A DNA stretch of 64,000 nt, taken from Candidatus Woesebacteria bacterium RIFCSPLOWO2_01_FULL_44_24b. Lineage in GTDB: Bacteria; Patescibacteriota; Microgenomatia; UBA8517. Below, piece after piece: positions 1,789-44,857 of this stretch (positions are counted from its first letter, which is position 1; every line of letters begins with the position of its first letter). Where the stretch lies: NCBI GenBank assembly GCA_001793235.1, contig MGHM01000004.1:34467-98466 (forward strand). Reading direction: 5' to 3'. Below the pieces are notes generated by a model. That model searched no databases. It had not been told where the DNA came from and worked only from the letters and a program-made list of their open reading frames with translations. Position numbers and translations under genes: made by a program.

Positions 1789-4369
<2,581 letters not shown>

Positions 4370-4389
<20 letters not shown>

Positions 4390-5875
4390 TTGTGCCCCTT
4401 GTCTTTACAAAATTTTCTTTGAGTTTGTTCGCTTCGGCTAGAATCTCATTTTGATCTTCTTCTGAAAAATCTTCTTTTCTGGCAATATCCGTCAAAGTTT
4501 TCTTAAATTTATTTTTAATCTTATTCATGAGTTCCGCTCTAAACTCTGTAACCAGTTGAACTTCTATATCATCAAAAACACCCGAGTTTGCAAGAAATAT
4601 TGTTACTACCTGCTCGGCCATACCAATTGGGCTGTATTGCGGCTGTTTTAGGATCTCAACTACCCGCTTTCCTCGCTCGATTTTATCCTTTGTTGCGGCG
4701 TCTGTGTCTGCGGCAAACTGCGCAAATGTCGCAAGCTCCCAATACTGGGACAGTTCAAGCCTGAGTTTTCCTGCAACGCGCTTCATGGGTTTGCTTTGTG
4801 CGGCTCCACCGACACGCGAGACGGACAGGCCAACGTTAAGTGCAGGTTTCACGCCCGCAAAAAACAAATCAGGCTCCAGATAAATCTGGCCATCGGTTAT
4901 GGAAATAACATTTGTTGGAATATATGCGGAGACATCTCCCGCTTGAGTTTCAATGATAGGAAGGGCAGTCAAAGAACCGCCGCCGTTTTTCTTATTCAGT
5001 CTGCATGCGCGCTCCAAAAGCCTTGAGTGAAGGTAAAAGACATCTCCAGGGTATGCCTCACGGCCGGAAGGTCGCCTCAGGAGCAAAGACAACTCACGAT
5101 AACTCCATGCATGTTTTGTTAAGTCATCATAAACAATCAAGACGTCTTGCCCTTTTTCCATAAAATACTCGCCGATTGCAGTTCCCACATATGGCGCTAT
5201 GTAGCGAAGGCTGGCCGAGTCGGAGGCGGTGGCTGCAACAACAATTGTATTTTTCAGAGCATCGAATTCTTCAAACTTTTCAATAACCGCGGCAACTTTC
5301 CCCCGTTTTTGGCCAATTGCCACATAAATACTTATGACACTCTGGTCTTTCTGGTTAATTATCGTGTCCACCGCAAGTGCGCTTTTACCGGTCCCCCGGT
5401 CTCCAATAATAAGTTGGCGCTGGCCTCGGCCAATGGGAATCATGGCGTCCACCGCCAAGATCCCGGTAAGAAGAGATGTGTCAACCGATTGCCTGTCAAC
5501 AATCCCAGGGGCGGTTCTCTCAACCGGCATTAATTTGTCAACTTTATAATCCCCCTTGCCATCGAGATACTCGCCAAGCGGGTTTATGACCCGGCCAAGA
5601 AGATCTTTCCCGGCACCGATTTTCAAAGTGTCCCTTGTGAGGTTCACCATGTTTCCACGAGAAACTTCTTCGTAGCCGCCCAAAATAACCGCGCCGATTT
5701 TGTCTTCCTCAAGGTTCATGATAAGTGCCCTGCTTGCGCCTATACTAACAACTTCACCAAACATAGCCTCGGGCAGCCCCTTAATCCAAACCACACCATC
5801 CCCGGCCGCGCTAACTTCTCCCGCGGCTTCGTCATTTACCTTAGCATTCTTTATTTTTTGTGTAAGGCTTATCAC
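4370..5875 (-). CDS. atpA: F0F1 ATP synthase subunit alpha
   Basis: Contains the P-loop GDRGTGKSA plus typical alpha N-terminal and nucleotide-binding domains. Confidence 0.95.
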
Positions 5876-5877
5876 CG

Positions 5878-6366
5878 TTAACTCCTATGCACCTGGCTTG
5901 CGATTTGCGCAAGTTTAGATTCCAGTTTTTTGTCTGCTTTTTCGCCAAGCGCTTTTTCAATAACTACAAGTGAAGTTGCAAGAACATCCTTCTCGTAGTC
6001 TTTAACCAACTTAGTGCGCTCAGCCGCAATTTCACTCTTTGCCTTTTCAAGCAGTCTTTTGACATCATTCTGTACACTAGCAAGTGTTTCTTTCTTCAGT
6101 TTTGCAGCCTCAAGTCTACTTGCGCGCAGGTTTTGTGTTTTTTCCTCCTGCAGTTTTTTAAGCATCTGGGCGCGCTCTCTTTCAACACTTTCTTTTTGAG
6201 AGCTTATTTGGGCTGTAGCATCATCAATCCTTGCCAGATCAGCCTTTTTGGCATGAATTGCCTTTAAAACCGGCTTGTATAGATAACGATTCAATAAAAA
6301 TACCAAAATGCCAAAGTTCACTACCTGAAAAATCATCACTCTTGGGTCAATTCCTAGTTTTTCCAT
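5878..6366 (-). CDS. atpF: F0F1 ATP synthase subunit b (no delta gene follows)
   Basis: 162 aa with an N-terminal TM helix and then a long charged coiled coil. It is positioned between atpE and atpA. Confidence 0.8.
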
Positions 6367-6380
6367 TTGTACCTCTCTAA

Positions 6381-7394
<1,014 letters not shown>

Positions 7395-7398
<4 letters not shown>

Positions 7399-7613
7399 TT
7401 TTTGATTCTTCTTCCTATTTTTTGCGCGCGCCAGATACCAATCGGTACACCCATAATTATACCAATAATTATAAAAAGCGGGGTAGTGGAAAGTGTTTTA
7501 TCAATAAACACTCCCACAATAAGCAAAACAACAGGTAAAGCTACAAGGGTAAAGGTGATACTTGTAGCTTCTTCAAATGCTCGCGCTAAATCTCGTATTT
7601 CTGTGCTTTTCAT
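7395..7613 (-). CDS. small membrane protein at head of atp operon (AtpI/AtpZ-like)
   Basis: 72 aa with two TM helices, overlapping the atpB start by 4 nt at the position usually held by atpI. The call rests on position and topology only. Confidence 0.4.
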
Positions 7614-7664
7614 AAATACCTGAAAGTAATTCGAAGTTATTAAGCTATTTTAAGTTAAACTAGC

Positions 7665-8114
7665 TTATATTTCAACCGGATTGATAGAGTTTGCTTTCCC
7701 ATCCTCGTCCAGTGTCGCAAAATAACCGAGTACCGTTACCTCCGGGTACTCATGTGTAATTATTTCTTTAATCTCAGAAATATCAGATGTGTGTTTTTCC
7801 AGCTCTGCTCGACTCCCAGACACTAAACTATTGCCGTACTTACCGCAATTTTGATGATTTATTATGTGCACTCCCTTTGTCCCGTGAAGTTTAATCGATA
7901 ATTTTATTTGAGAGAGTAACGCATCTCTGTCCCCTGCGGCACCGGCAACAGCAATTCTATCGTGGTCTCCGTACAAACTCCGCTCCTCTATCCAATCAGC
8001 AATCAGCTTCTGGAACCTAAAGTCCATACAGGTAGCAACTGCTGCACTTATTTCATGATTTTCTTTACTCACAGCGGATATTTTATACCCTTGAGAATAC
8101 AAAAAGCAACACAA
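7665..8114 (-). CDS. beta-class carbonic anhydrase-like protein (short form)
   Basis: The zinc-ligand motifs CxDxR (CMDFR) and HxxCG (HQNCG) occur with appropriate spacing. The track start is a TTG, so the real start is uncertain. Confidence 0.4.
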   Translation of the reverse strand: MCCFLYSQGYKISAVSKENHEISAAVATCMDFRFQKLIADWIEERSLYGDHDRIAVAGAAGDRDALLSQIKLSIKLHGTKGVHIINHQNCGKYGNSLVSGSRAELEKHTSDISEIKEIITHEYPEVTVLGYFATLDEDGKANSINPVEI

Positions 8115-12844: not shown

Positions 12845-15434
12845 CGAGTTCGAATCAAAAATACCAGTCTATAAAATCTCTGCCCAAAAGCAGCTTAATC
12901 GCCAAGTCCCTCCTGCAGCACACACTCCAATGTACATCTGGCATAAGTATTGGTCCAGAAAAACCTGGAATGTCATTGCTGAATTTGTAAAAACATATTG
13001 CCCTGAAAATGGAATCGTTTTTGATCCCTTTGCTGGTAGTGGGATAGTTGCAATGGAAGCTTTAAAAAATAAAAGACGGGCAATAGTCGCAGATATTTCC
13101 CCAATTGCTACAGAAATTACAAGGCTTACCATCAAGCCTGTTTCGGTTGAAAAGCTCCACGAAGTTTATAAAACAGTAGAAGGCAAAGTAAAAGACAAGA
13201 TTCTAGATTTATACAAAACAAAGTGTAGAAAATGTGGCAATGAATTCCCGTTGACTTGTGCTATATGGAAACAAAAAAGGCAGTCTTCTGACAAGCCCAT
13301 CTCGCGAGAGTGTATAGATATCCGGTATAAAGCATGCCCTAAATGTGGTGATAGAAAGGAAAAAGACAATCCTCCAAATTCCTTTGACTTTGAAAAACTA
13401 AAACAGATTGACGAGATGGAAATAAAAGAATGGTACCCAAAAAACAGGCTATATCACATTAACGGTAAACCATTCATGAAAAAAGAAAAATACGAATCTG
13501 TAGATGAATTATTTACTAAAAGAAATCTTCAGGCTCTTGCGTGGCTGATGGAAGCCATAGAGGAGGAAACAAATAGAGATTTAAGAGACTTTTTGAAGAT
13601 TGCTTTTACTTCAATGGTCCATTTATGTACGACCATGTGCCCAATATCTGAGGGGGGTCATTTCACTCCTTATAGTTCGGCCTGGACCCAACAAAGTTAT
13701 TGGTTCCCATCCGGGCCGTTCATGGAACAAAATGTTTGGCTTAAATTTGAAGGTTCAATGATTGGCAATCAAGGTTTGCTCAACGGAAAGAATGAGAGTA
13801 ATAAGTACTTTAAAGATGTAAAATTCGCTCAATCTTTTGAAGAAGTTGTGAATGGTGAAGCTGACATTTTTATCTACACTGGTTCGTCTTTTGATCTTAT
13901 TAAGCAAATGCGTAATGTATCTGGCAATTCTGGATGCGCGGATTATATTTTTACTGACCCACCATACGATTCTTCAATCCAATATGGGGAACTTGCCTAC
14001 ATGTGGATTTCCTGGCTTAAAAAAGATGAAGGGTACCTTGAAAAGATAGCGACAGATGAAGTTATACACAACAAACAGCAAGAAAAAAGTTTCGACACCT
14101 ACCATTCCTTACTTTCTAGGAGCTTTGAAGAAATGTATTCAGTTTTGAAACCAGATGCCTATTTGACTGTCACATTTCATAACCCTACATTTAAAGTCAG
14201 AAACGCGACAATTCGGGCAGGGGTTATTGCAGGCTTTGAACTGCAAAAAATCCACCATCAGGAATTGGCACGAGCCTCTGCAAAATCGCTTTTACAACCA
14301 TTTGGTTCCGCGCAAGGTGACTTTTACTTGCGATTTTTCAAGCCTCCACAGGACGAAAAATCGATAGAGCCTGAAGCAATAGATGAAGCTAGATTTGAAA
14401 AAATAGTAATAGACACAGCAACTCAAATTATTGCTGAGCGCGGCGAGCCCACACCGTATACAATTCTCATTAATGCGATTGACCCGGAACTTGCTAAAAG
14501 AGGATTTTTCTCTGAGCTAAAAACAGGATTAAACATTAATACTGTTCTTGAGTCGCGTTTAAACAACGAATTCACTCTAGTTAAAGCAAAATTAGGTGGA
14601 GCTGAGGGTGACCTTTGGTGGTTTAGTAATCCGTCAAATATTTCTCATCTTGAAAAAATACCCCTAAGCGAGCGCGTTGAACAAACAGTTTTGCGATTTC
14701 TTCAAAAGCAGGGAAGGTCTACTTTTACTGAAGTGTGGGATGCTGTTAGTAGAGAGTTTCCTAACTCACTCACTTCAGACCAAATGAGCATTAAAGATGC
14801 ACTCAAAGCTTACGCGAAGCCTATCTCTGGAGGCAACTGGCTCATCAAACCAAATTCCAAACAAGGAGAGATAGAGCGAGACCACACAATTATTATTGCC
14901 ACACTTGCCAAAATTGGAAAATCTCAAGGATATGATATATGGATTGGAAAAGTTGAGCAGTCTCACATAATTCCTGAGTCTATGAACGGAGGGAAAAAGT
15001 TAGGAGAACTTGTAACATACAAAAATATTAGATCACTTACAAACATACAAAACCCTGATACAGTAGAAGATATTGACTTACTTTGGATAAAAGATGACCA
15101 AATCGTTTGTGCATTCGAAATTGAATCTACTACTTCTATGACAAGTGGATTGCAAAGAGGGTCAAATATTGATAGTTCTGTACCAAAATTTCTAGTAATG
15201 CCTGAAGAAAGAGAGTCGCAATTATTTCAAAAAATGAAATCTCCGATGTTTATCGAACGCTTTCAAAACGACAGTTGGAAAGTTATATACTTTGGTGCTT
15301 TAACAGAAGAGTATATGAAGTCGAAAGGGAAAACTAATATATTTAAGTTAGAGAACAAAAAGGTCGTAGATAAGATGTCTCAAAAAACTTCTAAAAATCA
15401 ACTTGATTTGTTCAATAATAAGTTGAAAAGTTAG
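12834..15434 (+). CDS. DNA (N6-adenine/N4-cytosine) methyltransferase, 866 aa, with inserted zinc ribbon and C-terminal winged-helix plus PD-(D/E)xK-like region
   Basis: SAM motif I is HKYWSRKTWNVIAEFV...VFDPFAGSGIVAMEA at about 13000-13050, and catalytic motif IV is TDPPYDSS at about 13957-13980. A CxxC...CxxC segment (CRKCGN...CPKCGD) lies between them. The C-terminal 350 aa contain IDLLWIKDDQIVCAFEIEST. The gene is AT-richer than its neighbours. Confidence 0.75.
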   Translation: MTPDEFESKIPVYKISAQKQLNRQVPPAAHTPMYIWHKYWSRKTWNVIAEFVKTYCPENGIVFDPFAGSGIVAMEALKNKRRAIVADISPIATEITRLTIKPVSVEKLHEVYKTVEGKVKDKILDLYKTKCRKCGNEFPLTCAIWKQKRQSSDKPISRECIDIRYKACPKCGDRKEKDNPPNSFDFEKLKQIDEMEIKEWYPKNRLYHINGKPFMKKEKYESVDELFTKRNLQALAWLMEAIEEETNRDLRDFLKIAFTSMVHLCTTMCPISEGGHFTPYSSAWTQQSYWFPSGPFMEQNVWLKFEGSMIGNQGLLNGKNESNKYFKDVKFAQSFEEVVNGEADIFIYTGSSFDLIKQMRNVSGNSGCADYIFTDPPYDSSIQYGELAYMWISWLKKDEGYLEKIATDEVIHNKQQEKSFDTYHSLLSRSFEEMYSVLKPDAYLTVTFHNPTFKVRNATIRAGVIAGFELQKIHHQELARASAKSLLQPFGSAQGDFYLRFFKPPQDEKSIEPEAIDEARFEKIVIDTATQIIAERGEPTPYTILINAIDPELAKRGFFSELKTGLNINTVLESRLNNEFTLVKAKLGGAEGDLWWFSNPSNISHLEKIPLSERVEQTVLRFLQKQGRSTFTEVWDAVSREFPNSLTSDQMSIKDALKAYAKPISGGNWLIKPNSKQGEIERDHTIIIATLAKIGKSQGYDIWIGKVEQSHIIPESMNGGKKLGELVTYKNIRSLTNIQNPDTVEDIDLLWIKDDQIVCAFEIESTTSMTSGLQRGSNIDSSVPKFLVMPEERESQLFQKMKSPMFIERFQNDSWKVIYFGALTEEYMKSKGKTNIFKLENKKVVDKMSQKTSKNQLDLFNNKLKS

Positions 15435-16690
15435 GCTTCCCTAATCGCTTTACTTACAAGTTTATGATGGTAGCTTCTCGCAAAGCGGTGGGCTTCATCG
15501 CGCAGTCTTTGAACCAGTTTTTTTGCCGGACTTTCAGGGAGCTCAAACTCATGAAATTCGCCTTGGGTTTTCAAAATTAAAGTCTCCTCACGCTTGGCTA
15601 AGCCAACTACCGGCACTTCGTTGATCACCTCAAGTGCCGCCGAGAGCTGACCTTTACCACCGTCGACTATTATTAAATCCGGTTTTCCCCATGTTTCAAA
15701 CCTGTGTTTCCTTTTAATTAGTACAGATTTTAAAGACCCTACATCATCACTTTTCTTTTTGTCTGAAACTTTATAGTGCCTGTAAAGAGTCTTATCCGGC
15801 TCCCCGTCAATAAAAGTCACCATGGATGCCGTGGGATAAGTGCCTGCCAAGTGGGCCACGTCAAAACATTCGATTCTGTTTAGGTTTTTTATTTCGAAAA
15901 ATTGTACCAAAATCTTTTTTAAACTTATGAGCTCGTTCTCTCTAATATCCTCCAATAGGTTCGGGTTTTCAATATAGCCATCGTCAAGCTCCTCACGGGT
16001 GGTCGTGTAGCTTAGGGCTTCAAGTTTTCTTTTGACATGAGCAGCCTCTTCAAATTTTTCGAGTTTTGAATAATTTGTCATTTCAAGCTCTAACTGATTC
16101 ATTATTAACTTGGATTTACCGGCTAAAATTGCGTTAACCCTTCGCACATTGAGCAAATAGTCTTTTCTTAGTTCCGGATTTTTAACAACCTCGCTTGGGC
16201 ATGGATTGCAAAGCCCGATTTGACTGTAGACACACGGGCGTTTGCCGGGCTTGTGAGTACTGAACGGAAAAATTCTTCGCACAAGTTTTAATACCCGCTT
16301 GGGTGCATTACCGTTTATAAAAGGCCCATAAACATGTTTTAGCTTTTGCTTAGTTAACTCCCTTTGGCGCAAAAGTATTATGCGTGGTAACTCATCAGGA
16401 GTAATTCCAATATAGAGCGAGCTTTTGTCATCCCTCAGAGCAAAATTATATTTCGGCTCATATTTACGGACTAACTTAGCTTCAAGTAAAAGCGCCTCAA
16501 ATTCGGAGGAAACAGGAATGTAATTTAGGAATTTTGCCGTGCTCACCATCTTGGCGGTTTTCGGTGCTAGTCCGCCAGCAAAATAAGAACGAACACGGTT
16601 TTTCAGGTTTTTGGCCTTGCCTACATAAATTACCCGCCTGTGGGCATCGCGAAAAAGATAAACACCGGACAGCTCCGGAGGTAGCTTCAT
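15431..16690 (-). CDS. uvrC: excinuclease ABC subunit C, short form lacking the C-terminal (HhH)2 domain
   Basis: GIY-YIG domain (LPPELSGVYLFRDAHRRVIYVGKAKNLKNRVRSYF), a UVR/UvrB-interacting segment (EKFEEAAHVKRKLEAL) and an RNase-H-like endonuclease domain (IECFDVAHLAGTYPTASMVTF...IVDGGKGQLSAA). The start is trimmed to MKLPPE at 16690, with an ATGA overlap onto the upstream gene. Confidence 0.85.
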   Translation of the reverse strand: MKLPPELSGVYLFRDAHRRVIYVGKAKNLKNRVRSYFAGGLAPKTAKMVSTAKFLNYIPVSSEFEALLLEAKLVRKYEPKYNFALRDDKSSLYIGITPDELPRIILLRQRELTKQKLKHVYGPFINGNAPKRVLKLVRRIFPFSTHKPGKRPCVYSQIGLCNPCPSEVVKNPELRKDYLLNVRRVNAILAGKSKLIMNQLELEMTNYSKLEKFEEAAHVKRKLEALSYTTTREELDDGYIENPNLLEDIRENELISLKKILVQFFEIKNLNRIECFDVAHLAGTYPTASMVTFIDGEPDKTLYRHYKVSDKKKSDDVGSLKSVLIKRKHRFETWGKPDLIIVDGGKGQLSAALEVINEVPVVGLAKREETLILKTQGEFHEFELPESPAKKLVQRLRDEAHRFARSYHHKLVSKAIREA

Positions 16691-18453
16691 TTTCTTCTCC
16701 TTATATAAATAACGACACCCGCTACACAAAAAACAACAGTTAAGCTGATTGCAATAACGTCCCTAGCTAGAGCAGGGTTTTTGTTGGTGGCAAACTCCTC
16801 GCGTGCATTTCCGACGTAAAGCTCGGCCGTTTCTGGCATCGAACTTCCCAAAAAGCCATAGGGGACAGTAAACTCAAGAATTCTTTTTTCATAAGGTAAA
16901 AGAGTTGTGAGATTGCTTTCATATTTTTTTGCACTGTCAAAAAAAAGTTCCACCTTCTGGTCATACAAGGCCGCGGGCCCGGGATTTTCAATTTCAGCCA
17001 CAAGCACCAGTCCTTGAAAAGGTAGGCTCCCCCGCTGTGAGATTGAGATTGCCGGAATCGAGCTTGTATTTTGAGGCAACTCTCCCAGAGCAACGAATAC
17101 ATCCTTTTGAGGGTTAGCTCCCAATTTGTACGAGCCGGGGGGGATGGGGAGCTCGGGGCTCACGCCATGCATAACAAAGTTTATGTGCCGCATGTCGAGC
17201 TTTGTGAAATAGTCAACTCCGCCGGTTGTCTTGCCCCAAGTCGGGTCTACCGGTACCCAGAGGTCACGCTCGCTATCCCAATATTCGGGCCACGCATGAA
17301 GCACATCGGCAACAAGGGCTAAAGGTCTTAAACTCGTGTTGTCTGTATATGCATAACCATTCACTTCGCGGGCCGGTATTCCCTTCGCGCGCGCAAGAGC
17401 AATAAAAAGGTCAGTGAATTCGGTGCAAATCGATTCGGCAGGGTTTTCGAGCGCCGACAGAGCCCCTAACCTTTTGCTCCCCGTAGTGACTTTCTCATAG
17501 TTATAATTCAAGGTATTGACGACGTAATCATAAATTTCTTTCGGACTAGCCAAGCCATTGGCAATTTCTACAACCTTTGGATCTTCTACTTGCCAATATA
17601 CACTTCCTTCAAGAGGGCTGTTTGATGCAAATTGCCTCCATGGAGACGCGAAAACCTGTACTACACCGATTGCGCGAACGTCGAGTCTCTCGCGTGCGTG
17701 AAGATTATAAACCGCGAGCCAATTGCCGTCAGGGTCCACTAATATGTTATCCGGTTTGGGGCTAACAGACTGATAGAAAATTTTTTGAAAAGAAGTATCC
17801 GGAGGGAGCGCAACTTCCATTTCAGTCGGAAGTGCCAGGGGGTTTTGAAGATGGTAGGTAAGATCAAAAGAGAATACCTGAAATTTACCAAACGCAGCAC
17901 TTACGCCCAAAGTAACAACTGCCTTATCAAAATAATAAGTCGTAAATCCCCCCGTACCAAGTTCATTGTCAGGAGGCGGCGACATGTATGAATGCGCACC
18001 AAAACTGTTCGGAACCTTAAGCCTGATTAAGTAAGTATCGAATGTTTCTGTCGCGAGCTTGGGTATTGAAACTTCAGTTACATCTCCGGAAACTCTGACC
18101 ACAGACGCATCCAAATACTCTATCGTAAAATTTTGCGAATTACCCTCTCCCACAATAGACTCGTCAAAAAGAACTTTAAGTTTTACTACATCACCTTTAG
18201 TGAGCTCGACCTCGAGTTCCCCATCTTCGGTAAAGGCACGCGCCTGACTAACTTCGGCGCCCTTCAAAGAAAGAGTGAAATCTGTAGCATGGACCTCGGT
18301 TGTTGCATTGGTAATGGAAATTTCCTGAGTGACTTTGGTTGCACTTCCGTCAACTTCATAAGTGGCCTCACCCGAAACCAAAAAGTCATCAGTGGCATAT
18401 GCAATTTTTGGGGATAGTATCAGTAAAAAAAATACAGCAATAAATTTCTTCAT
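16687..18453 (-). CDS. secreted transglutaminase-like domain protein with C-terminal TM anchor
   Basis: Signal peptide, a long beta-rich N-terminal region, then a transglutaminase core Cys-His-Asp triad (ICTEFTDLFIALARAKGIPAREVNGY...HAWPEYW...D) and a terminal hydrophobic helix followed by RRRK. Confidence 0.7.
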   Translation of the reverse strand: MKKFIAVFFLLILSPKIAYATDDFLVSGEATYEVDGSATKVTQEISITNATTEVHATDFTLSLKGAEVSQARAFTEDGELEVELTKGDVVKLKVLFDESIVGEGNSQNFTIEYLDASVVRVSGDVTEVSIPKLATETFDTYLIRLKVPNSFGAHSYMSPPPDNELGTGGFTTYYFDKAVVTLGVSAAFGKFQVFSFDLTYHLQNPLALPTEMEVALPPDTSFQKIFYQSVSPKPDNILVDPDGNWLAVYNLHARERLDVRAIGVVQVFASPWRQFASNSPLEGSVYWQVEDPKVVEIANGLASPKEIYDYVVNTLNYNYEKVTTGSKRLGALSALENPAESICTEFTDLFIALARAKGIPAREVNGYAYTDNTSLRPLALVADVLHAWPEYWDSERDLWVPVDPTWGKTTGGVDYFTKLDMRHINFVMHGVSPELPIPPGSYKLGANPQKDVFVALGELPQNTSSIPAISISQRGSLPFQGLVLVAEIENPGPAALYDQKVELFFDSAKKYESNLTTLLPYEKRILEFTVPYGFLGSSMPETAELYVGNAREEFATNKNPALARDVIAISLTVVFCVAGVVIYIRRRK

Positions 18454-18464
18454 GGCCTAGTTTA

Positions 18465-21365
18465 CTACAAAGTGTGCTCGAGAAACTTTCCGGTGTGTGT
18501 TTTTGCATTTTTAATTTCATTTGGCTCCCCCTCAGCGACTACTCGCCCGCCAAGCTCCCCACCTTCGGGGCCCAGTTCAATTAGCCAATCAGCATTTTTA
18601 ATGACATCTAAGTTGTGCTCTATGACAATTACCGTGTTGCCACGCTCGACCAGAATCTTCAAGACCGCAACCAACTTTTCCAGATCTGCAAAATGAAGAC
18701 CGGTCGTTGGCTCGTCCAAAATATAAACCGTTTTTCCTGTAGCTTTTTTAGATAACTCAGTCGCAAGTTTAACTCGCTGGGCCTCGCCTCCCGAGAGAGT
18801 CGTTGCTGCTTGCCCAAGCTCCATGTAGTCAAGCCCGACGGCCTTCAAGGTCTCAAGCTTTGCAACTATATTTTTATAAACATGGAAAAACTCAAGTGCT
18901 TCCTCAACAGTCATTGCAAGAACCTCGGCTATACTTTTTCCTTTATATGTCACTTCCAAGGTCTGACTACCGTAGCGCGCACCGTGGCAAACTTCACAAT
19001 CAACCCAAATGTCCGGCATAAACTGCATCTCAATTTTGATTTTGCCCTGGCCTTCACAGACTTCGCAGCGCCCACCTTTGACGTTAAAGCTGAATCTGCC
19101 TTTTTTAAAGCCCAAGGTTTTGGCTTCACGAGTAAGCGCAAATACATCGCGAATTAAATCAAACACTTTTGTATAAGTCGCGGGGTTACTTCTCGGGGTT
19201 CGCCCAATTGGCGCCTGATCAATAAGGACCACTTTATCTATTAATTCATCCCCTTCAATTCGTGTAAATTCACCCGCCTGCTCCCTGTGATATTTATTAA
19301 GAGATTTAGCGAGGGCGTGGTAAAGGGTCTCAACCACAAGGGTTGACTTGCCGGATCCAGAAACTCCAGTCACCGCTATGAACTTGCCCAAGGGGAAATG
19401 TACATCTATATTTTTAAGATTAAACTGACTTGCACCAAAAAGACCTAAGTTTCCGCCTCCGTTTTGGGAAACTTTAGGAAAGCGAATTACGCGCCTTCCA
19501 GATAAATACTTGCCGGTGAGAGACTCACCGCCTTTAATCTCCTCCAGAGTCCCTTGGGCAACCACACCACCACCGTGTTTACCAGCTCCCGGGCCAAAGT
19601 CAAAAACATAGTCGGCAGAGCTTATTACATCACGGTCATGCTCCACCACCACAACGGTATTCCCCAAATCTCTGAGCTTTTTTAATGTAGCAATCAAAAG
19701 TTCGTTATCCCGGGGATGAAGGCCAATAGTGGGCTCATCCAAGACATACAAAACTCCCGTAAGGCCTGAGCCAATTTGGCTGGCCAGGCGTATGCGAGCA
19801 GCCTCCCCTCCAGAAAGCGTATTAGCCGCGCGAGAGACAGTCAAATAGTCAAGCCCGACGTTAATGAGAAAATTAAGTCTGGCGATAATTTCTTTGAGTA
19901 CCAGGCCTGCAATCTCACTCTCACGATTTGACAGGATTTTTCCGTCTTTTAGCTCCTTTGCCCAAACCAATGTGTCTTTCACAGCTATATCAGTAACCTC
20001 ACTTATATTCTGGCCATTGATTGTGATACTCAAAGCTTCTTTTTTAAGCCTCGCTCCGTGGCAGTCCTCACAAACTACCTCGGTCATGTATTTTTCAATG
20101 CCACTTTTAATGTAGTCCGAGTCACTTGTGTGGTAGCGCCGCTCAAGCTCAGTCAAAACCCCCGGCCAGGCTTCAGTTATATAAGTCATCCTGCCAAAAC
20201 GATTTGTGCCCTCTACCCGGTAAGTCTTGCCACTCGTTCCTTCCAACAAAATCTTTTTCTGATCTGGAGTATATTTTTTAATTGCCATATCCGGGTCAAT
20301 GCCGTTTTCCTGTAGTGCCGCCAAAATGAGTCTCGAAAGCCAAGTATCGTGTTCAAAAGTGGAAGCATACGGAATTACACCGCCTTCAAGCACAGAAAGC
20401 TCAGGCGCAAGTACGCGAGCTGGATCCACTTTCAAGATTCTCCCCAGCCCTGCGCAAGTTGGGCAAGCTCCATGGGGAGAGTTGAAAGAGAAAGTTCTTG
20501 GCTCAAGCTCGGGAAGGCTGATGTTATCAACTGGACAAGCAAATTTTTCTGAAAAAAGGTGGTCCTCAAAAACTTTTGGGTATTCCGGCATTTCGAAGCC
20601 GCTATCAAATATCTTACTCACGACCGCCGAGCCATCCGAAAGCTTGAGAGCCTGCTCGATGCCGTCATTAACACGAGTGCTAAGGCTTTTGACAAATAGC
20701 TCATCTTTTAAGTCATTTGTCGAAGCTGAAATTCTGTCGATCACCACATCTATCGAGTGCTTATTGGTTTTGATTAACACGAAATCTTCATCCAAATCGT
20801 GAATTTCTCCATCTAACCGGACACGCCTGTAACCTTTGGACTTCAAGTTTGCAAAAAGCGCACTGAATTCCCCTTTTCTGTCTTTGATAATGGGAGCAAA
20901 GATCATAAACCTGGCTTGTTTTCCTGCCCCTCCCATAATTAAATCCATCACAGCACCTGCTATTTGCTCAGTAGTCTGGCTTGAAATTTCACGGCCACAA
21001 ATCGGGCAATGCGGGTGACCCGCTCGCGCCCAGAGTAGCCGCAGATAGTCATAAATCTCAGTAACCGTTCCAACTGTCGAGCGCGGATTGTGAGAAGTAG
21101 TTTTTTGGTCAATGGAGATGGCGGGCGAGAGCCCTTCAATCAAGTCAACATCAGGTTTGCCCATAATCCCCAAAAATTGCCTGGCATAAGTGGACAGGGA
21201 CTCAACGTAGCGTCTTTGCCCTTCGGCGTAAATCGTGTCAAAAGCTAAGGAACTTTTGCCACTACCCGAGACTCCAGTAAAAACAACCAGCTTGTTTTTG
21301 GGAATATCAATATCAATATTTTTGAGGTTATGCTGTCTAGCCCCCCGGACTTTAATATAATCCAT
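18465..21365 (-). CDS. uvrA: excinuclease ABC subunit A
   Basis: Two ABC ATPase modules with zinc fingers. The canonical N-terminus MDYIKVRGARQHNLKNIDIDIPKNKLVVFTGVSGSGKSSL begins at the second ATG (21363-21365). The first ATG (21377) overlaps the TATAAT -10 box. Confidence 0.95.
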   Translation of the reverse strand: MDYIKVRGARQHNLKNIDIDIPKNKLVVFTGVSGSGKSSLAFDTIYAEGQRRYVESLSTYARQFLGIMGKPDVDLIEGLSPAISIDQKTTSHNPRSTVGTVTEIYDYLRLLWARAGHPHCPICGREISSQTTEQIAGAVMDLIMGGAGKQARFMIFAPIIKDRKGEFSALFANLKSKGYRRVRLDGEIHDLDEDFVLIKTNKHSIDVVIDRISASTNDLKDELFVKSLSTRVNDGIEQALKLSDGSAVVSKIFDSGFEMPEYPKVFEDHLFSEKFACPVDNISLPELEPRTFSFNSPHGACPTCAGLGRILKVDPARVLAPELSVLEGGVIPYASTFEHDTWLSRLILAALQENGIDPDMAIKKYTPDQKKILLEGTSGKTYRVEGTNRFGRMTYITEAWPGVLTELERRYHTSDSDYIKSGIEKYMTEVVCEDCHGARLKKEALSITINGQNISEVTDIAVKDTLVWAKELKDGKILSNRESEIAGLVLKEIIARLNFLINVGLDYLTVSRAANTLSGGEAARIRLASQIGSGLTGVLYVLDEPTIGLHPRDNELLIATLKKLRDLGNTVVVVEHDRDVISSADYVFDFGPGAGKHGGGVVAQGTLEEIKGGESLTGKYLSGRRVIRFPKVSQNGGGNLGLFGASQFNLKNIDVHFPLGKFIAVTGVSGSGKSTLVVETLYHALAKSLNKYHREQAGEFTRIEGDELIDKVVLIDQAPIGRTPRSNPATYTKVFDLIRDVFALTREAKTLGFKKGRFSFNVKGGRCEVCEGQGKIKIEMQFMPDIWVDCEVCHGARYGSQTLEVTYKGKSIAEVLAMTVEEALEFFHVYKNIVAKLETLKAVGLDYMELGQAATTLSGGEAQRVKLATELSKKATGKTVYILDEPTTGLHFADLEKLVAVLKILVERGNTVIVIEHNLDVIKNADWLIELGPEGGELGGRVVAEGEPNEIKNAKTHTGKFLEHTL

Positions 21366-21410
21366 ACGACCTATCATTATACCAGATATTTGTTCGGGTT
21401 TTGTAAGTAG
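21366..21410 (-). promoter_or_regulatory. uvrA promoter with extended -10 (TGGTATAAT) and an upstream conserved motif shared with the uvrB/lexA region (candidate SOS operator)
   Basis: In gene orientation the region reads CTACTTACAAAACCCGAACAAATATCTGGTATAATGATAGGTCGTATG. The same arrangement (CTACTAACATTACCCGAAC...TGTATAATGAT) is found upstream of uvrB. Confidence 0.5.
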
Positions 21411-21425
21411 GTTGATTCGAATAAT

Positions 21426-21728
21426 CTAACTTGAAGCAAAGGATTTTTCGAGTTTATTCACTTTTTCCCGCAATTCTTCAAACTCCTCCCTTGAGACTGA
21501 TGTAGACTTTATCAGCTTTATTTTTCCATTAACAATTCTGTCGTTAACAGTAATCTTTTCATCTAAATCTTTCACCTGATCGCTTAAACCATCCACTTTC
21601 TTTTCTAGTTTATCAAGCCTGGCATTGCTTTCATCAAACATTTTTTGCATACCGGAAAGTATTGTGTCTACGGCTTCCATTAGCATAACTTCATTAACTA
21701 ACTTAGAGTCTCCATTTCCTTTTGGCAT
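21426..21728 (-). CDS. coiled-coil hypothetical protein (100 aa)
   Basis: ORF with charged heptad-like repeats (KLEKKVDGLSDQVKDLDEKI). No domain was recognised. Confidence 0.4.
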   Translation of the reverse strand: MPKGNGDSKLVNEVMLMEAVDTILSGMQKMFDESNARLDKLEKKVDGLSDQVKDLDEKITVNDRIVNGKIKLIKSTSVSREEFEELREKVNKLEKSFASS

Positions 21729-21761
21729 TTGAAAATCAGTATATCATAATTCCAACTCCCT

Positions 21762-21800
21762 AACTTTATCCCTAATCTCAATTGCCAGCTCAAAAACTCA
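21762..21800. repeat. duplicated copy of the uvrB 3' end (direct repeat of 23149-23185)
   Basis: 29 of 32 nt in the core match. On the minus strand 21741-21800 translates to *VFELAIEIRDKVRELEL*, the same peptide as the UvrB C-terminus with synonymous differences. The copy lies outside any annotated ORF. Confidence 0.7.
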
Positions 21801-21809
21801 TAACAATTT

Positions 21810-23135
21810 TTATTCTTCATCCAGGAGGCCCCATCTGCTCAGAACTTCATTCTTAAGCTGCCTAACTCTCTCGTGACCTATCCCATATCTCTGGCCAATT
21901 TCTTTTAAAGTTGTTTTGCTGGACGCGGCAGATAATTCATAATATTCCACAATAACATTGTAACTTCTTTCGTCAGTTGCTCTAAGATTTTCAAGGGCGT
22001 TATCATTATCAGCAAGATAACTAACCAATCTTCGCCACATTTCCCAGCGCCCAATTGGCAAATCCTCGGGAGGTAACTTTTCACCCACTATAAATCCATT
22101 CCTGAATTCATCCCATTGTATTCTATCTGTCTCAGCTCGTTTTACCCTCTCTAATTTATTCCGAAGTGCTTTAGCCCGATCGACATATCTGCTGGCAACT
22201 ATGTCTGTGAATCCAAGATTCAACAATACTGCGTTTGAGCCATTCTGAACTGAATGATAAGAAATACCAAGTTCTTCTGCTATCTTAACCATTGAATTAG
22301 ATTTAGACGAGAGAAACATAGCGTCGGCAACATCGATTTCTGGGAATTCATATTTTCTTAGTTCTGCTAGAAACAGCTTTTTTTCTGGATCTTTTAAAGC
22401 CTCAACAACAAACTTTCTTTTGTTTTCATGCTCTTCAGTTATTATCCCTTCGTCATAGTACACACTGTTTCTGTCTCTTTGAACTCTTATTTCGATACCC
22501 TTTTCAGACAATATTTTTTTTGCAGCTTGAGAAACATGCGTCGTCATAATAGAAGGGGGGACCTGAATAACCTCTAATTCTGGAGCCTGGTCAAGTATAC
22601 GCTCTAAACTTGACTGACTGAGAAGTGGTGGTTTTGAAATATGAAGTATCCTTGTCTTCCTGTTTATTGCGGCCAAATCTTCAAGCTCTGATACCTGTAA
22701 ATACCCCTTGCTTGCAAGATATCTATCATCAGGTTTGTCACTTTTGTCAATTTTAAGCCTGCTACGACGTCGTGGCTGACTATGAGTGGGACCGAAATCT
22801 TCTTGCGATTCTTCTGCGTGTTCGATGCCAAGTAAGTTCTCAACCTCACGTTTATTAGTTTGAACTTGTTTTCTAACAAATGCCAATATCGTATTGTCTC
22901 CTAAGTCTTTTTGAGGAGTTGTCAATAAGTCAGACAATTTTTGGTCTTGGTCAAGTTCATCCCAAAATGCTTTAATTGACCCATCCGAAGTCACAAAATC
23001 ATAGACTCCTCTAACTGCTTTTAACATAATGTCATTTGCCTCATCGCCAAGTTCCGGTTCCAAAACCCTGCAAAGATTTTGGTAAAACTCAGATTCAGGT
23101 AATTGATAGTTTAAGTTGCGTTCAGTCGATGTCAT
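21810..23135 (-). CDS. hypothetical protein with two C-terminal sigma-70-region-4-like HTH motifs. It is a single-gene insertion within the uvrB 3' end
   Basis: 441 aa. The C-terminal half contains NSMVKIAEELGISYHSVQN and TLKEIGQRYGIGHERVRQLKNEVLSRW, both region-4-like. The N-terminal 240 aa are unassigned. The ATG overlaps the uvrB stop (ATGA). Confidence 0.55.
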   Translation of the reverse strand: MTSTERNLNYQLPESEFYQNLCRVLEPELGDEANDIMLKAVRGVYDFVTSDGSIKAFWDELDQDQKLSDLLTTPQKDLGDNTILAFVRKQVQTNKREVENLLGIEHAEESQEDFGPTHSQPRRRSRLKIDKSDKPDDRYLASKGYLQVSELEDLAAINRKTRILHISKPPLLSQSSLERILDQAPELEVIQVPPSIMTTHVSQAAKKILSEKGIEIRVQRDRNSVYYDEGIITEEHENKRKFVVEALKDPEKKLFLAELRKYEFPEIDVADAMFLSSKSNSMVKIAEELGISYHSVQNGSNAVLLNLGFTDIVASRYVDRAKALRNKLERVKRAETDRIQWDEFRNGFIVGEKLPPEDLPIGRWEMWRRLVSYLADNDNALENLRATDERSYNVIVEYYELSAASSKTTLKEIGQRYGIGHERVRQLKNEVLSRWGLLDEE

Positions 23136-25144
23136 TCTAATTCTCGTACTTTATCCCTAATTTCAATTGCCAACTCGAAGTTAAGAGCCTCGGCGGCGAG
23201 TTTCATCTCCCGCCTTAACTTTCTCGCCAGCCTTTTTTTGTCCATCGGGGTAAGAGCATCAAGTTCAATATCGGGAAGCCTTGCATAAGTAATATCCCGG
23301 TCCTCAAGGGCCAAACTGGCAGCTTCTACATCGCGGTCAACAAGTTTTTCGCGGATTGGCTTTTCAATCGGCGTTGGAACGATGCCAAGTTTTTTATTCA
23401 TAGCAAGCTGATACTCTCGCCTGCGATCAACTTCGTCTAAAGCCCTCTTCATGGAGCCTGTGATACTGTCGGCATACAAAATCACTTTACCTTCAATGTG
23501 GCGCGCGGCACGGCCCATTGTCTGAATCAAGGTGACATCGCTTCGCAAAAAACCCTCTTTGTCGGCATCCAAAATCGCGACCAAAGAAACCTCTGGCAAA
23601 TCAAGGCCTTCACGAAGCAAATTTATCCCCACCAAACAGTCATATTTGCCGCTTCTTAAGTCATCCAGAATGTCAGTTCTATCAAGAGTGTGCACATCCG
23701 AGTGCAGATAGGCTACATCAATACCCTGCTCTTTCAGGTATTCCGCCAGGTCCTCGGCAGTGCGCTTGGTCAAAGTAGTCACTAAAGTTCGCTGGCCTTT
23801 TAATTTTTTGAGTTTAATTTCTTCAATTACATCAGAAACTTGAGTTTTAATCGGGCGCACTTCCACCTCCGGGTCGGGAATCCCAGTTGGCCGTACAAGC
23901 TGCTCAACAATATTTTTCTTCCCGGACATAGTCTTTTCCCACTCTGCCGGTGTTGCCGAAGTCGCAATAAATCTCGGGATTCTACGCATAAATTCTTCAA
24001 AAGTTAATGGACGGTTGTCGTAGGCAGCAGGAAGCCTAAAGCCATAATCAATTAAAGTTTTCTTCCGTGACAAATCCCCCGCATACATGCCACGAACTTG
24101 GGGGAAAGAAATGTGCGACTCATCGGCTATGACGAGCCATTTATTTCCATAAGCCTCCTGAAAGTAGTCCAAGAGGCTGTGGGGGGCATCTCCGGGAGCA
24201 CGGCCGTCAAAGTATCTGGAGTAATTTTCAATACCTTTGACATAGCCGATTTCCTCAATCATCTCAAGGTCATAAGTAACTTTTTGCTTTATTCTATTGG
24301 CCTCAAGAATCTTGCCCTGGCTCTCAAAAAACCCAACTCGCTCCGTGAGGTCAGAACGGATTTTTTCAAAAACCTGCTTGTTGTTTGTTGGATCTGTAAT
24401 AAAGTGCTTAGAGGGAAAAAGCATAAAGGCGGTGGACAGCTTTTCAAGAAGCTTGCCCGAAATCGGATCAATTATATTCACAGTCTTAATTTTGCCTTCT
24501 GCAATCTCTAAGTCCACACCTTGATCCTGATAGGAAGGGAAAATTGAAATAGTGTCACCACGGACGCGAAAAGTGCCTCTATGGAAGCCAAACTCACCGC
24601 GCTCATATTGAAGGTCAACGAGCCTGTCAATTATTTGCTCACGGGTGATGCGCATTCCGGGGGCAAACTCAAAAACGAATTTGCCGTACTCTTTTGGTGA
24701 ACCGATATTATAAATACAGCTGACCGAGGCTACAACTATCACATCTTTTCTGGTTAAAATATTTGCCGTTGCCTCAAGCCTGAGCTTATCTATTAGCTCA
24801 TTTATATCTGAATCTTTTTCAATATACGTGTCTGTTGAGGGAATGTAGGCTTCTGGTTGATAGTAATCATAGTAGCTCACGAAATAGCTCACAGCATTTT
24901 CCGGGAAAAAATCCCTGAACTCCTGATAAAGCTGGGCGGCCAGAGTTTTGTTGTGAGAAATTATTAAAGTCGGCATCTGAAGCTTCTCGATAGTATTGGC
25001 AACCGTAAAAGTTTTTCCAGAACCGGTTACACCAAGAAGAACTTGATACTTCTCGTTATTTTTTACTCGCTCAACAAGTGCATCAACAGCTTTCTTCTGA
25101 TCACGCACCGGCGAGAATCTTGATTTAATCTTGAATTTCCCCAT
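23132..25144 (-). CDS. uvrB: excinuclease ABC subunit B
   Basis: Contains helicase motifs (GVTGSGKTF), a beta-hairpin region and the C-terminal UvrC-interaction helix ...FELAIEIRDKVRELE*. Confidence 0.95.
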   Translation of the reverse strand: MGKFKIKSRFSPVRDQKKAVDALVERVKNNEKYQVLLGVTGSGKTFTVANTIEKLQMPTLIISHNKTLAAQLYQEFRDFFPENAVSYFVSYYDYYQPEAYIPSTDTYIEKDSDINELIDKLRLEATANILTRKDVIVVASVSCIYNIGSPKEYGKFVFEFAPGMRITREQIIDRLVDLQYERGEFGFHRGTFRVRGDTISIFPSYQDQGVDLEIAEGKIKTVNIIDPISGKLLEKLSTAFMLFPSKHFITDPTNNKQVFEKIRSDLTERVGFFESQGKILEANRIKQKVTYDLEMIEEIGYVKGIENYSRYFDGRAPGDAPHSLLDYFQEAYGNKWLVIADESHISFPQVRGMYAGDLSRKKTLIDYGFRLPAAYDNRPLTFEEFMRRIPRFIATSATPAEWEKTMSGKKNIVEQLVRPTGIPDPEVEVRPIKTQVSDVIEEIKLKKLKGQRTLVTTLTKRTAEDLAEYLKEQGIDVAYLHSDVHTLDRTDILDDLRSGKYDCLVGINLLREGLDLPEVSLVAILDADKEGFLRSDVTLIQTMGRAARHIEGKVILYADSITGSMKRALDEVDRRREYQLAMNKKLGIVPTPIEKPIREKLVDRDVEAASLALEDRDITYARLPDIELDALTPMDKKRLARKLRREMKLAAEALNFELAIEIRDKVRELE

Positions 25145-25145
25145 G

Positions 25146-25223
25146 AAGCATCATTATACAATATTTGCTACTTGACACGTTCGGGTAATGTTAGTAGTAT
25201 GATTTTACAAACAAAATACAAAC
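25146..25223. promoter_or_regulatory. divergent uvrB / lexA control region with an extended -10 for uvrB, a TTGACA-17-TAGTAT promoter for lexA and a conserved candidate operator
   Basis: Plus strand reads ATCATTATACAATATTTGCTACTTGACACGTTCGGGTAATGTTAGTAG. The 19-mer GTTCGGGTAATGTTAGTAG (25179-25197) sits in the lexA promoter spacer and is near-identical to the 19-mer upstream of uvrA. There is an imperfect inverted repeat CTACTTGACA-N11-TGTTAGTAG. Confidence 0.5.
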
Positions 25224-25850
25224 ATGGCACCCATACTTTACAGACGTCAGAGACAAATTGTTGATTTTATACAGCAATATATTCAAGCAAATAGTACAGC
25301 CCCAACACTTCGCCAAATCGCCGATGCCATCGGAGTATCTTCACTCGCCACAGTCCATGAGCACCTTGCATCTTTGCAATATAAAGGCATAATCAAGCGA
25401 AAATCCGGGAAAAACCGATCCATTGAATTGGTAGACAAAACTCTCGACTTTCATATGGAAAAGGCAGTAGAGGTTCCAATTCTTGGCTTCATTGCCGCAG
25501 GTAAACCAATTGAGCCATACACAGACCCGCATGCAAAAATATTTATTGGCCCGGCATTTATATCGAGTAAAAAACGTGTTTATGTACTTCAAGTCCGCGG
25601 GGAAAGTATGATCGAGGAGCAAATCCGCGACGGGGATTATGTTGTTGTTGAAGAAACCGAGGAAGCCAGAAACGGCCAGATAGTGGTGGCGCTTTTAGAT
25701 AACGGCATGGCAACCTTAAAGCGCTTTTTCAAAGAAGCCACCAGAATCCGCCTTGAGCCAGCAAACGCTACAATGGCCCCGATTTTCGTCAAAAACGTCA
25801 CCATTCAAGGTAAAGTCGTCGGGCTTATCCGAAAATACCACTCAACCTAG
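25224..25850 (+). CDS. lexA: LexA repressor (S24 peptidase)
   Basis: N-terminal winged HTH, Ala-Gly cleavage site (IAAGKPIEP), catalytic Ser (VRGESM) and Lys (ATLKRF). Confidence 0.85.
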   Translation: MAPILYRRQRQIVDFIQQYIQANSTAPTLRQIADAIGVSSLATVHEHLASLQYKGIIKRKSGKNRSIELVDKTLDFHMEKAVEVPILGFIAAGKPIEPYTDPHAKIFIGPAFISSKKRVYVLQVRGESMIEEQIRDGDYVVVEETEEARNGQIVVALLDNGMATLKRFFKEATRIRLEPANATMAPIFVKNVTIQGKVVGLIRKYHST

Positions 25851-43770: not shown

Positions 43771-44367
43771 ATGGCTGTTAGAAAAACTATTCAAATCGGT
43801 GACCCCAGGCTTAAAGCTCCTAATAAAGAAGCCAAAGATTTTTCGGCCCCAAAAATCAAGAAAGTCATCAAAGACTTAAAAGATACGATGATTAAAAACG
43901 ATCTTATTGGGCTTGCTGCGCCCCAAATTGGTGAAAACTATAAAATCTTTGTAACTCAACCCAGAAAAACAAAAGCAAGACGCCTTCCTAAAGGAGATAA
44001 ATTCCGGGTCTATATAAACCCAAAAATTACTTATTTTTCCAAAAAGCAAAATATTATTTACGAAGGCTGTGGCAGTGTTCTGAATGGAACATTATTTGGT
44101 CCCGTCAAAAGGCCAGAAGAGATAAAAGTTGTTGCTCGGGATGAAAACCAAAAAAAGTTTCAGGTTCATTGTAATGGAATACTTGCGCGAGTAATCCAGC
44201 ATGAATATGACCACCTTGATGGTATTGAGTTCACGGAAAAAATCTATGATTACAAAAAATTAATGGCCAAAGATTTTTATATTAAAAATATCAGAAATTC
44301 AAAAGCGCAACTCTCCGCTTCAAATATTACTATCCGTGAGTATATAATACTCAATGGGAAAAATTGA
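43771..44367 (+). CDS. def: peptide deformylase
   Basis: Carries the three PDF motifs GLAAPQIG, EGCGS and QHEYDHLDG. Confidence 0.9.
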   Translation: MAVRKTIQIGDPRLKAPNKEAKDFSAPKIKKVIKDLKDTMIKNDLIGLAAPQIGENYKIFVTQPRKTKARRLPKGDKFRVYINPKITYFSKKQNIIYEGCGSVLNGTLFGPVKRPEEIKVVARDENQKKFQVHCNGILARVIQHEYDHLDGIEFTEKIYDYKKLMAKDFYIKNIRNSKAQLSASNITIREYIILNGKN

Positions 44368-44857
44368 GGAAGTTATTTACGAAAACTACAAAAAAGCAAT
44401 CACCGAGGGTGATTACGACCAAGCCAAGCGCGCGGTTGAGCTTGGAAAAGTACTAAAAGAAAAAATTGATACCGAACAGTTTGTTGATTACGACTCGCTC
44501 AAAGTCCCCATAACTCAAATCATCGGAAAGCATTTCAACCCATTCCCCTATAAATACCATGAAATTCAGGGAGTTGTCGAGCTCACAACTGTCGTTATCA
44601 CATTAACTGAGCAGGAAAATAAACTTTTTGGGCTTTTTAGCAGGAATGAAACAAAGGGCAAAAGCATAAAAGTTGTTACAAAACAACTTATAGCTCAACA
44701 CATGTGGGGTAAAGAGTTTGTAGCCAATAGTCTGATTAGGATAAATATCTGGAGGTTGAGAAAGAAAATTGAACCAGATATTACATATCCGCAGCTCCTA
44801 ATAAGTCTACCCGAGCGTGGCTATATCTTTTTGGGTAATAAAGTTGACTATTTTTAG
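44354..44857 (+). CDS. orphan OmpR/PhoB-type winged-helix DNA-binding protein with no receiver domain
   Basis: The C-terminal 100 aa match trans_reg_C (LTEQENKLFGLF...IWRLRKKIEPD...LISLPERGYIF). The N-terminal 65 aa are unassigned. The gene overlaps the def end by 14 nt. Confidence 0.5.
   Translation: MGKIEEVIYENYKKAITEGDYDQAKRAVELGKVLKEKIDTEQFVDYDSLKVPITQIIGKHFNPFPYKYHEIQGVVELTTVVITLTEQENKLFGLFSRNETKGKSIKVVTKQLIAQHMWGKEFVANSLIRINIWRLRKKIEPDITYPQLLISLPERGYIFLGNKVDYF

Follow-up and report, generated by a model that had tools for sequence, protein, structure and literature searches.

In a 64,000-nucleotide stretch of the genome of Candidatus Woesebacteria bacterium RIFCSPLOWO2_01_FULL_44_24b (contig MGHM01000004.1, positions 34,467 to 98,466; hereafter the window), the stop codon of the repair gene uvrB overlaps the start of an open reading frame (ORF) for a protein of 441 amino acids (aa), here called ORF441. 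ORF441 is a recent insertion at uvrB, made with DNA from a related lineage. It is an intact gene of an uncharacterised, rapidly diverging family that occurs sporadically in Microgenomates-type bacteria of the candidate phyla radiation (CPR). On balance, its product is probably an accessory protein that binds DNA, acquired by horizontal transfer and carried along by the uvrB operon. A preliminary description of this DNA had instead proposed a candidate regulator of the DNA-damage response. What it observed is confirmed and its interpretation is supported in part, but a dedicated regulator of that kind is not supported.

Contigs with the identical protein number 21; they come from several samples and all show one and the same context. 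A record of the protein carries the name hypothetical protein of Candidatus Woesebacteria RIFCSPHIGHO2_01_FULL_44_21. The family has one copy in the window, and the ORF list holds no other long frame on either strand at 21810–23135. The co-transcription with uvrB, the translational coupling to it and the adjacency to lexA that had been described are all supported by the layout of the locus:

25224–25850, plus strand: lexA, divergent from uvrB, with LexA_DNA_bind and Peptidase_S24 domains.
23132–25144, minus strand: uvrB, an ORF with Pfam UvrB domains on the identical contig copies.
23134–23179, minus strand: repeat copy 1, the working end of uvrB (its last 15 codons, FELAIEIRDKVRELE), which came in with ORF441; from the repeat search.
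23132–23135, minus strand: ATGA overlap of the uvrB stop codon (TGA) and the ORF441 start codon (ATG), read directly from the sequence.
21810–23135, minus strand: coding sequence of ORF441 (441 aa), with DUF1699_N and two sigma-70-region-4-like helix-turn-helix (HTH) domains.
21795–23179, minus strand: the inserted segment of 1385 bp, consisting of the replacement uvrB terminus, ORF441 and 15 nt, delimited by the repeat and by empty sites.
21744–21794 including the stop codon, minus strand: repeat copy 2, the displaced native uvrB terminus (FELAIEIRDKVRELEL, then the stop), now untranslated; from the repeat search and colinearity.
21426–21728, minus strand: ORF100, a small coiled-coil protein of 100 codons, a native neighbour of uvrB.
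18465–21377, minus strand: uvrA, an ORF with Pfam UvrA domains on the identical contig copies.

The insertion is recorded in the strongest direct repeat of the region, which exactly brackets ORF441: two copies of 46 nt, 83% identical and 1385 nt apart. The downstream copy encodes the same 15 residues as the functional end of uvrB, plus a leucine and a stop codon, and lies outside any usable ORF. The copies differ at 8 nt in 7 codons, and all eight differences are synonymous. In simulations, none of 20,000 sets of eight random substitutions was synonymous throughout, and sets of four were so in only ~0.3% of trials; the two copies must therefore have diverged as working uvrB ends in different lineages. 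A 1385-bp segment (21795–23179) entered uvrB 46 nt before the stop codon. In the proposed course of events, the segment from the related lineage would have brought its own last 15 codons, with the result that uvrB stayed intact and the native terminus was pushed downstream as a relic. Apart from ORF441, its sole ORF, the insert holds no gene or motif of a recombinase, transposase or nuclease, and there are no terminal inverted repeats at 21795 or 23179. The relic was also considered as a terminator or structured RNA, a role that was rejected for want of RNA structure (z = +0.5).

Relatives of the window retain the unoccupied form of the site. A search of metagenome contigs with the UvrB C-terminus gave 80 related CPR uvrB loci (L025–L104), and the family hidden Markov model (HMM) detects no family member in any of them. 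Their usual arrangement is lexA, then uvrB followed by uvrA, with a uvrB–uvrA spacer of 0 to ~1.8 kb. The two closest loci, L025 (UvrB 85.5% identical at the amino-acid level) and L026 (86%), both lack ORF441: in each, uvrB runs directly into a homologue of ORF100, and L026 continues into the same uvrA promoter as the window. These empty sites are colinear with the window from the relic through the short intergenic stretch into the beginning of ORF100, and the window on one side and L025 and L026 on the other present the occupied and empty alleles of one site in related genomes. Compared with the uvrB termini of these two loci, the relic differs at 5–6 of 45 nt and the functional copy at 10 of 45 nt. 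A homologue of ORF100 also lies directly 3′ of uvrB in L058, and ORF100 is itself an addition to the ancestral uvrB–uvrA pair. No match to an exact 27-mer of the relic exists in the metagenome collection, and saturation of third codon positions, in the comparison of the window with L025, leaves no recombination breakpoint resolvable inside uvrB.

This history leaves unsupported the step that led the preliminary description from a place in the uvrB operon to the regulation of the damage response: the gene arrived recently and is missing from L025, L026 and the other loci. It also speaks against the rival explanation that ORF441 is a dedicated regulator, or an anti-sigma-like modulator, of the DNA-damage response, tied to uvrB and uvrA and controlled by LexA. 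The gene is demonstrably an insertion, absent from 80 of 80 related CPR uvrB loci with the closest ones included, and a core regulator would not fall to 37–40% identity among lineages whose UvrB stays at ~85%.

The protein itself is divided into five parts:

22830–23090, minus strand: N-terminal helical domain, aa 16–102, from the model helices, with the motif LTxPxxxLxGxSPLxxLR.
22470–22718, minus strand: alpha/beta repeat domain DUF1699_N, leucine-rich-repeat (LRR)-like, aa 140–222, from Pfam, the model and Foldseek.
22203–22436, minus strand: first sigma-region-4-like HTH domain, aa 234–311, from hhalign.
22032–22193, minus strand: long connecting helix (aa 315–346) and conserved PPxxLPxxRWExW motif (aa 354–368), from the model and the family consensus.
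21828–21998, minus strand: C-terminal sigma-70 region 4 domain, aa 380–436, with the recognition helix H-E-R-V-R-Q, from Pfam Sigma70_r4.

The C-terminal 60 residues form a bona fide region 4.1/4.2 like that of the sigma-70 family (PF04545; group 1, SigA/RpoD). Their Pfam Sigma70_r4 score of 31.8 bits clears the cut-off of 24.1, and 88 of 118 family members match the same model. The profile of those 118 members finds SigA/RpoD region 4 in the PDB with E = 2e-16. An AlphaFold model built with the family alignment (mean predicted local distance difference test, pLDDT, 90.1; a single-sequence model, at 42.6, was not usable) has sigma factors and isolated SigA region 4 as its best PDB neighbours in Foldseek, with root-mean-square deviations of 2.2–3.5 Å, among them SigA region 4 complexed with the beta-flap and with WhiB proteins. 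The first HTH has only weak generic HTH matches in Pfam. By hhalign, its residues 256–311 and the C-terminal domain are homologues (probability 96.5%, E = 9e-10), and the dual region-4-like HTH is therefore an internal duplication. On this point the preliminary description, which had reported two region-4-like HTH segments and had suggested profile and structure comparisons of the fold, is borne out by both kinds of comparison.

The T-R-E-R-x-R-Q recognition helix of sigma region 4 is conserved across the family: the positions that contact the −35 element, which correspond to R584, E585, R586, R588 and Q589 of E. coli sigma70, are kept in 66–73% of members. Unlike sigma-70 factors, ORF441 has no region 2 or 3, hence no −10 binding, and carries its tandem region 4 fused to an LRR-like domain. 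Pfam finds no Sigma70_r2 or region 3 in ORF441 or in any of the 118 members, and NCBIfam sigma models match residues 379–434 only, with scores far below their cut-offs; because region 2 is lacking, the protein cannot be a sigma factor. The general plan, with a module for a partner or ligand at the N-terminus and an HTH of the region-4 class behind it, recalls LuxR/GerE-type and other tetra-helical HTH regulators. ORF441 departs from these in having two HTHs, and an LRR-like repeat where they carry receivers, STAND ATPases or autoinducer-binding domains. In Pfam it matches neither GerE (PF00196) nor any anti-sigma domain, and no nuclease domain (LAGLIDADG, GIY-YIG, HNH, PD-(D/E)xK or EDxHD) is found in it or in its family.

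The N-terminal 240 residues, in which no feature had been recognised at first, contain two domains. The second of them, at aa 140–222, is modelled as a four-strand beta-alpha repeat domain. Pfam DUF1699 (PF08004), described there as uncharacterised and archaeal, is matched by ORF441 with 31.3 bits, just under the cut-off of 33.4, and by 56 of 118 family members (best E = 4.5e-14); the precomputed annotation of the exact protein is PF28505, DUF1699_N, and is not flagged there as weak. ORF441 matches the N-terminal half of the DUF1699 profile, and its relative P0035 matches positions 5–115 of 130, first HTH included. What the bacterial family adds to DUF1699 is the long helix and the SigA-like region 4. 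In the literature the name DUF1699 was found only in work on the human FAM83 protein family. Foldseek pairs the domain with viral LRR proteins over ~80 aligned columns (probability 0.98), and one of its residues, His165, is nearly invariant (96% of family members). A reading of the alpha/beta domain as a serine or tyrosine recombinase was rejected: the domain order differs, a conserved catalytic Ser or Tyr pattern is missing, and Pfam gives no support. The helical domain at aa 16–102 is lineage-specific, occurring in ~30 of 118 members; in some others (the subgroup of P0038 and others) a CxHG...CxxC zinc-finger N-terminus takes its place. One member gave a sub-threshold match of this helical domain to the DUF2384/Xre_MbcA_ParS_C toxin-binding domain, an assignment that is no more than a lead, since the family profile, compared with PDB and Pfam, lent it no support.

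Taken together with the coupling to uvrB, this architecture suggests how the accessory protein may work. Through the ATGA overlap, ORF441 is translationally coupled to uvrB and would hence be driven by the lexA/uvrB promoter and operator. To judge from its sequence, the product would be a transcription factor that binds DNA. A −35-like (TTGACA-type) element is the probable target of its C-terminal domain, since this domain retains the E-R-x-R-Q residues of sigma region 4.2; the first HTH and the long helix would give specificity or dimerisation, and the LRR-like domain would bind a protein partner.

The same features could be read as those of a mimic or decoy of sigma region 4 that binds RNA polymerase or a partner protein and not DNA. 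It would occupy the beta-flap, or titrate proteins that target SigA region 4 (activators, anti-sigma-like proteins or phage factors), with the LRR-like domain as its sensing or binding module. The closeness of the C-terminal domain to region 4 of primary sigma factors (E = 2e-16) and the beta-flap and WhiB complexes among its PDB neighbours would suit such a protein, LRR-like folds are typically protein-binding, and fast evolution with a variable N-terminus fits a role at an interface of conflict. A pure protein decoy would not, however, need the DNA-contacting residues of the recognition helix, which are conserved, and ORF441 matches no known defence-system model. We regard this explanation as highly improbable.

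The family was revealed by an exhaustive HMMER search, which gave ~130 representatives with a conserved core at ORF441 residues 145–441; in word-indexed homology searches, ORF441 itself was the sole result or RpoD matches drowned out the rest. Five sites in GTDB genomes match a degenerate DNA pattern for PPxxLPxxRWExWQ, all by chance and none in a family member. ORF441 is 40% identical to P0003 and 37% to P0004, and UvrB identity among these lineages is 84–86%, a disparity which suggests that the family either evolves very fast or came separately into each lineage. Variants of the architecture occur, as seen at L109 (1944–3095 and 3213–4469), L011 (8001–9842) and L008 (8001–9068). L109 encodes a tandem paralogue in which the module of HTH, helix and region 4 follows a different N-terminus, and the variants also include the three additional region-4-like repeats of P0072 and the zinc-finger N-terminus of the P0038 subgroup. 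Domains fused in longer family members are uninformative.

Genomic contexts were recovered for 11 homologues. Only the two closest lie in the uvrB–uvrA spacer: P0003 (L001) directly upstream of uvrA, and P0004 (L002) 1 kb downstream of uvrB with two unrelated ORFs between. P0015 stands beside ruvCAB and dnaB, on the other strand. The remaining eight (P0005, P0018, P0021, P0024, P0033, P0038, P0040 and P0072) have no repair-gene neighbours and adjoin genes such as those of glycogen synthase, a radical SAM protein, S1, ftsZ/ftsA, greA, HisRS, PMT and the S6-SSB-S18 cluster. The wider family is dispersed, with unrelated housekeeping genes for neighbours, the very pattern that the preliminary description had named as speaking against its proposal. 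Upstream of P0033 (L007) there is a 4.4-kb stretch without called genes (3600–8000).

The expression of ORF441 is bound up with the promoters of the repair genes, two of which carry related elements:

25150–25204, unstranded: divergent promoter region of lexA and uvrB with an operator-like element (AATCATACTACTAACATTACCCGAAC, on the uvrB strand), which overlaps the −35/−10 of lexA.
21373–21417, minus strand: uvrA promoter P2, a copy of the uvrB promoter/operator, from the search for repeat families.

The operator-like element occupies 25179–25204 within the lexA/uvrB spacer (25145–25223). Its core ACCCGAA is conserved across the clade: it is present in 32 of 40 lexA/uvrB spacers of related loci, at 9.3 per kb compared with a background of 0.23 per kb (~40-fold). 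The usual form is AAAACCCGAA-N2-4-TGTCAA, abutting the −35 hexamer of lexA, and some spacers have an inverted pair. No Gram-positive Cheo box (GAAC-N4-GTTC) occurs in the lexA/uvrB spacer. The AAAACCCGAA element is a good candidate operator, presumably for LexA, in this CPR clade. The preliminary description had the uvrB transcription unit under putative LexA control; the conserved operator-like motif makes LexA-type control of the unit formed by uvrB and ORF441 plausible.

The lexA/uvrB spacer and the region upstream of uvrA share a 26-nt element (two matches, none expected): P2 of uvrA is a near copy of the uvrB promoter/operator less ~12 nt, and L026 has the same P2 in front of uvrA. Among related uvrA genes an upstream motif is rare (3 of 67), because uvrA is usually transcribed together with uvrB. 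A third ACCCGAAC site, inside uvrC at 15959–15966, is probably there by chance.

Similar elements accompany the closest relatives of ORF441. P0004 lies between the two copies of a 39-nt direct repeat (90% identity, spacing 1347 nt; L002 2074–2112 and 3421–3459), each of which is the promoter/operator element seen at uvrB/lexA and uvrA; the arrangement parallels the 46-nt repeat, spaced by 1385 nt, around ORF441. A variant of the operator motif lies upstream of P0003. The motif is absent from the six upstream regions of more distant homologues that were checked, P0018, P0021 and P0040 being left out. From the copies at P0004, the variant at P0003 and the lack of a motif at the distant homologues, damage-linked expression appears plausible, and for this sub-lineage only (ORF441, P0003 and P0004).

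Several points speak for a dedicated damage regulator. ORF441 is coupled to uvrB beside lexA; of its two closest homologues, P0003 adjoins uvrA and has a variant of the element upstream, and P0004 follows uvrB and lies between two promoter/operator copies; P0015 is next to ruvCAB and dnaB; and the lexA −35, which the operator motif abuts, could be a site of competition by a region 4 of the SigA kind. The eight contexts free of repair genes and the motif-free upstream regions count on the other side, along with the insertion history. Overall, a dedicated regulator is an unlikely account of the gene.

The uvrB–uvrA spacer is a variable spot in related loci. Its longer forms (L033, L038, L047, L081, L084, L090, L093, L097 and L098) hold ORFans, a DUF1996 protein, an LPD3 protein, UppP or an rve-type transposase. 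In L025, a Gp49/HigB-like toxin and an XRE antitoxin lie downstream of uvrB, after the ORF100 homologue.

A further explanation makes ORF441 a selfish, mobile cassette of a single gene, whose HTH domains recognise the uvrB–uvrA site and promote the insertion of the gene together with a replacement for the gene end that it interrupts. Several features would fit such a cassette. The insert contains this gene only and restores the end of uvrB with a copy from another allele, empty sites exist (L025 and L026), the three closest members sit at three positions in the same spacer, and the gene in L002 is again bracketed by a direct repeat (39 nt, 1347 nt apart). The distribution is patchy, the sequence evolves fast, and the spacer varies, with an rve transposase or LPD3 elsewhere and a toxin–antitoxin pair downstream of uvrB in L025. 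In fungal mitochondria, cob and atp6 are followed by free-standing endonuclease ORFs and then by a displaced C-terminal duplicate (PMC6279837). The architecture of uvrB with a replacement terminus, a foreign ORF and a displaced native terminus is like that of these genes, and like the one left where an integrative element has rebuilt the 3′ end of its target gene. Unlike homing-endonuclease genes and integrative elements, the insert lies in a bacterial chromosome and is a single HTH protein gene in which no endonuclease or integrase domain is detected.

Other findings speak against a mobile cassette: neither the protein nor the insert has a nuclease, recombinase or transposase motif, and the insert lacks terminal inverted repeats. 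None of the PADLOC and PHROG matches of ORF441 is significant; the PHROG 'homing endonuclease' match (E = 0.02) has no passing stretch and falls over an HTH region. The family has no homologues in phage or plasmid collections, a single copy in the window, and mostly the habit of an ordinary single gene among housekeeping genes. The repeat in L002 is a working promoter/operator, a function that may be the cause of its conservation, and the relic is accounted for by passive transfer, for example by homology-facilitated illegitimate recombination, with no part played by the protein. A mobile cassette is thus quite unlikely. There is a slender chance, a little smaller still, that the family as a whole consists of autonomous single-gene cassettes, with homing or integration at the uvrB–uvrA spacer achieved by an HTH protein alone that has no recognisable nuclease or recombinase domain and carries a spare gene end. 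Such a protein would perhaps recognise the SOS-type promoter/operator or the uvrB terminus, possibly using the alpha/beta domain with its conserved histidine.

Several points weigh against an accessory DNA-binding protein that arrived passively at uvrB. The three closest members (ORF441, P0003 and P0004) all lie in the uvrB–uvrA spacer, at three different positions; this clustering exceeds what is expected of a random passenger gene and fits either a repair-linked role or site-directed mobility. It is mainly because of this clustering that the dedicated regulator and the mobile cassette keep what probability they have. Candidate routes of insertion include homing-like invasion next to a single crossover with a circular cassette and homology-facilitated illegitimate recombination. 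The recognition helix of ORF441 has His in place of the first Arg, and its SigA-region-4-like domain could bind the RNA polymerase beta-flap, or proteins that bind region 4, and not DNA. What the sequences show is the ORF with its domains and their internal duplication, the insertion with its empty sites, and the conserved operator-like motif; that the protein binds −35-like sites, is expressed after DNA damage and affects transcription is what we infer.

The neighbourhood of the locus, and a second protein that the preliminary description had set beside ORF441, involve these further genes:

15431–16729, minus strand: uvrC, with GIY-YIG and UvrC RNase H domains.
47075–48259, plus strand: ORF394, with an insignificant GerE match.
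48252–50021, minus strand: PolX, convergent with ORF394, the two 3′ ends overlapping by 8 nt.
50487–50888: a NUDIX hydrolase gene.

Downstream of ORF441, on one strand, the order is ORF100, uvrA, a gene for a transglutaminase-like membrane protein and uvrC; uvrB, uvrA and uvrC all fall within 10 kb on that strand, with inserted or unrelated genes between. ORF394 adjoins PolX and is unrelated to the ORF441 family, as had been stated. The C-terminal LuxR/sigma-region-4 HTH ascribed to it is not upheld (GerE, E = 0.05; 13.7 bits against a cut-off of 23.5), and it has no relatives in the PDB. Unrelated to ORF441 and with an HTH match that is not significant, it adds nothing to an argument from two HTH proteins placed against repair genes. 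Elsewhere in the window, at 44354–44857 on the plus strand, is a gene for a stand-alone OmpR/PhoB-type winged-helix protein (Trans_reg_C) without a receiver domain; it overlaps a preceding ORF of 198 codons (43771–44367) by 14 nt.

ORF441 represents a type of HTH regulator with an undescribed combination of domains and an unusually clear signature of insertion. If it is a DNA binder based on SigA region 4 that is made together with UvrB, it would introduce a new transcription-factor architecture, an LRR-like domain joined to a tandem region 4, in CPR bacteria, about whose very small set of regulators little is known. This example shows how gene neighbourhood can mislead: ORF441 came to stand in a repair operon by being spliced in, not by membership of the pathway. 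With an occupied and an empty site and a uvrB terminus whose duplicate differs by synonymous changes only, the locus offers a rare, datable insertion, in an uncultivated lineage, that left an essential host gene intact. Beside the lexA −35, the AAAACCCGAA element shared across the clade gives these bacteria a testable candidate for the LexA operator.

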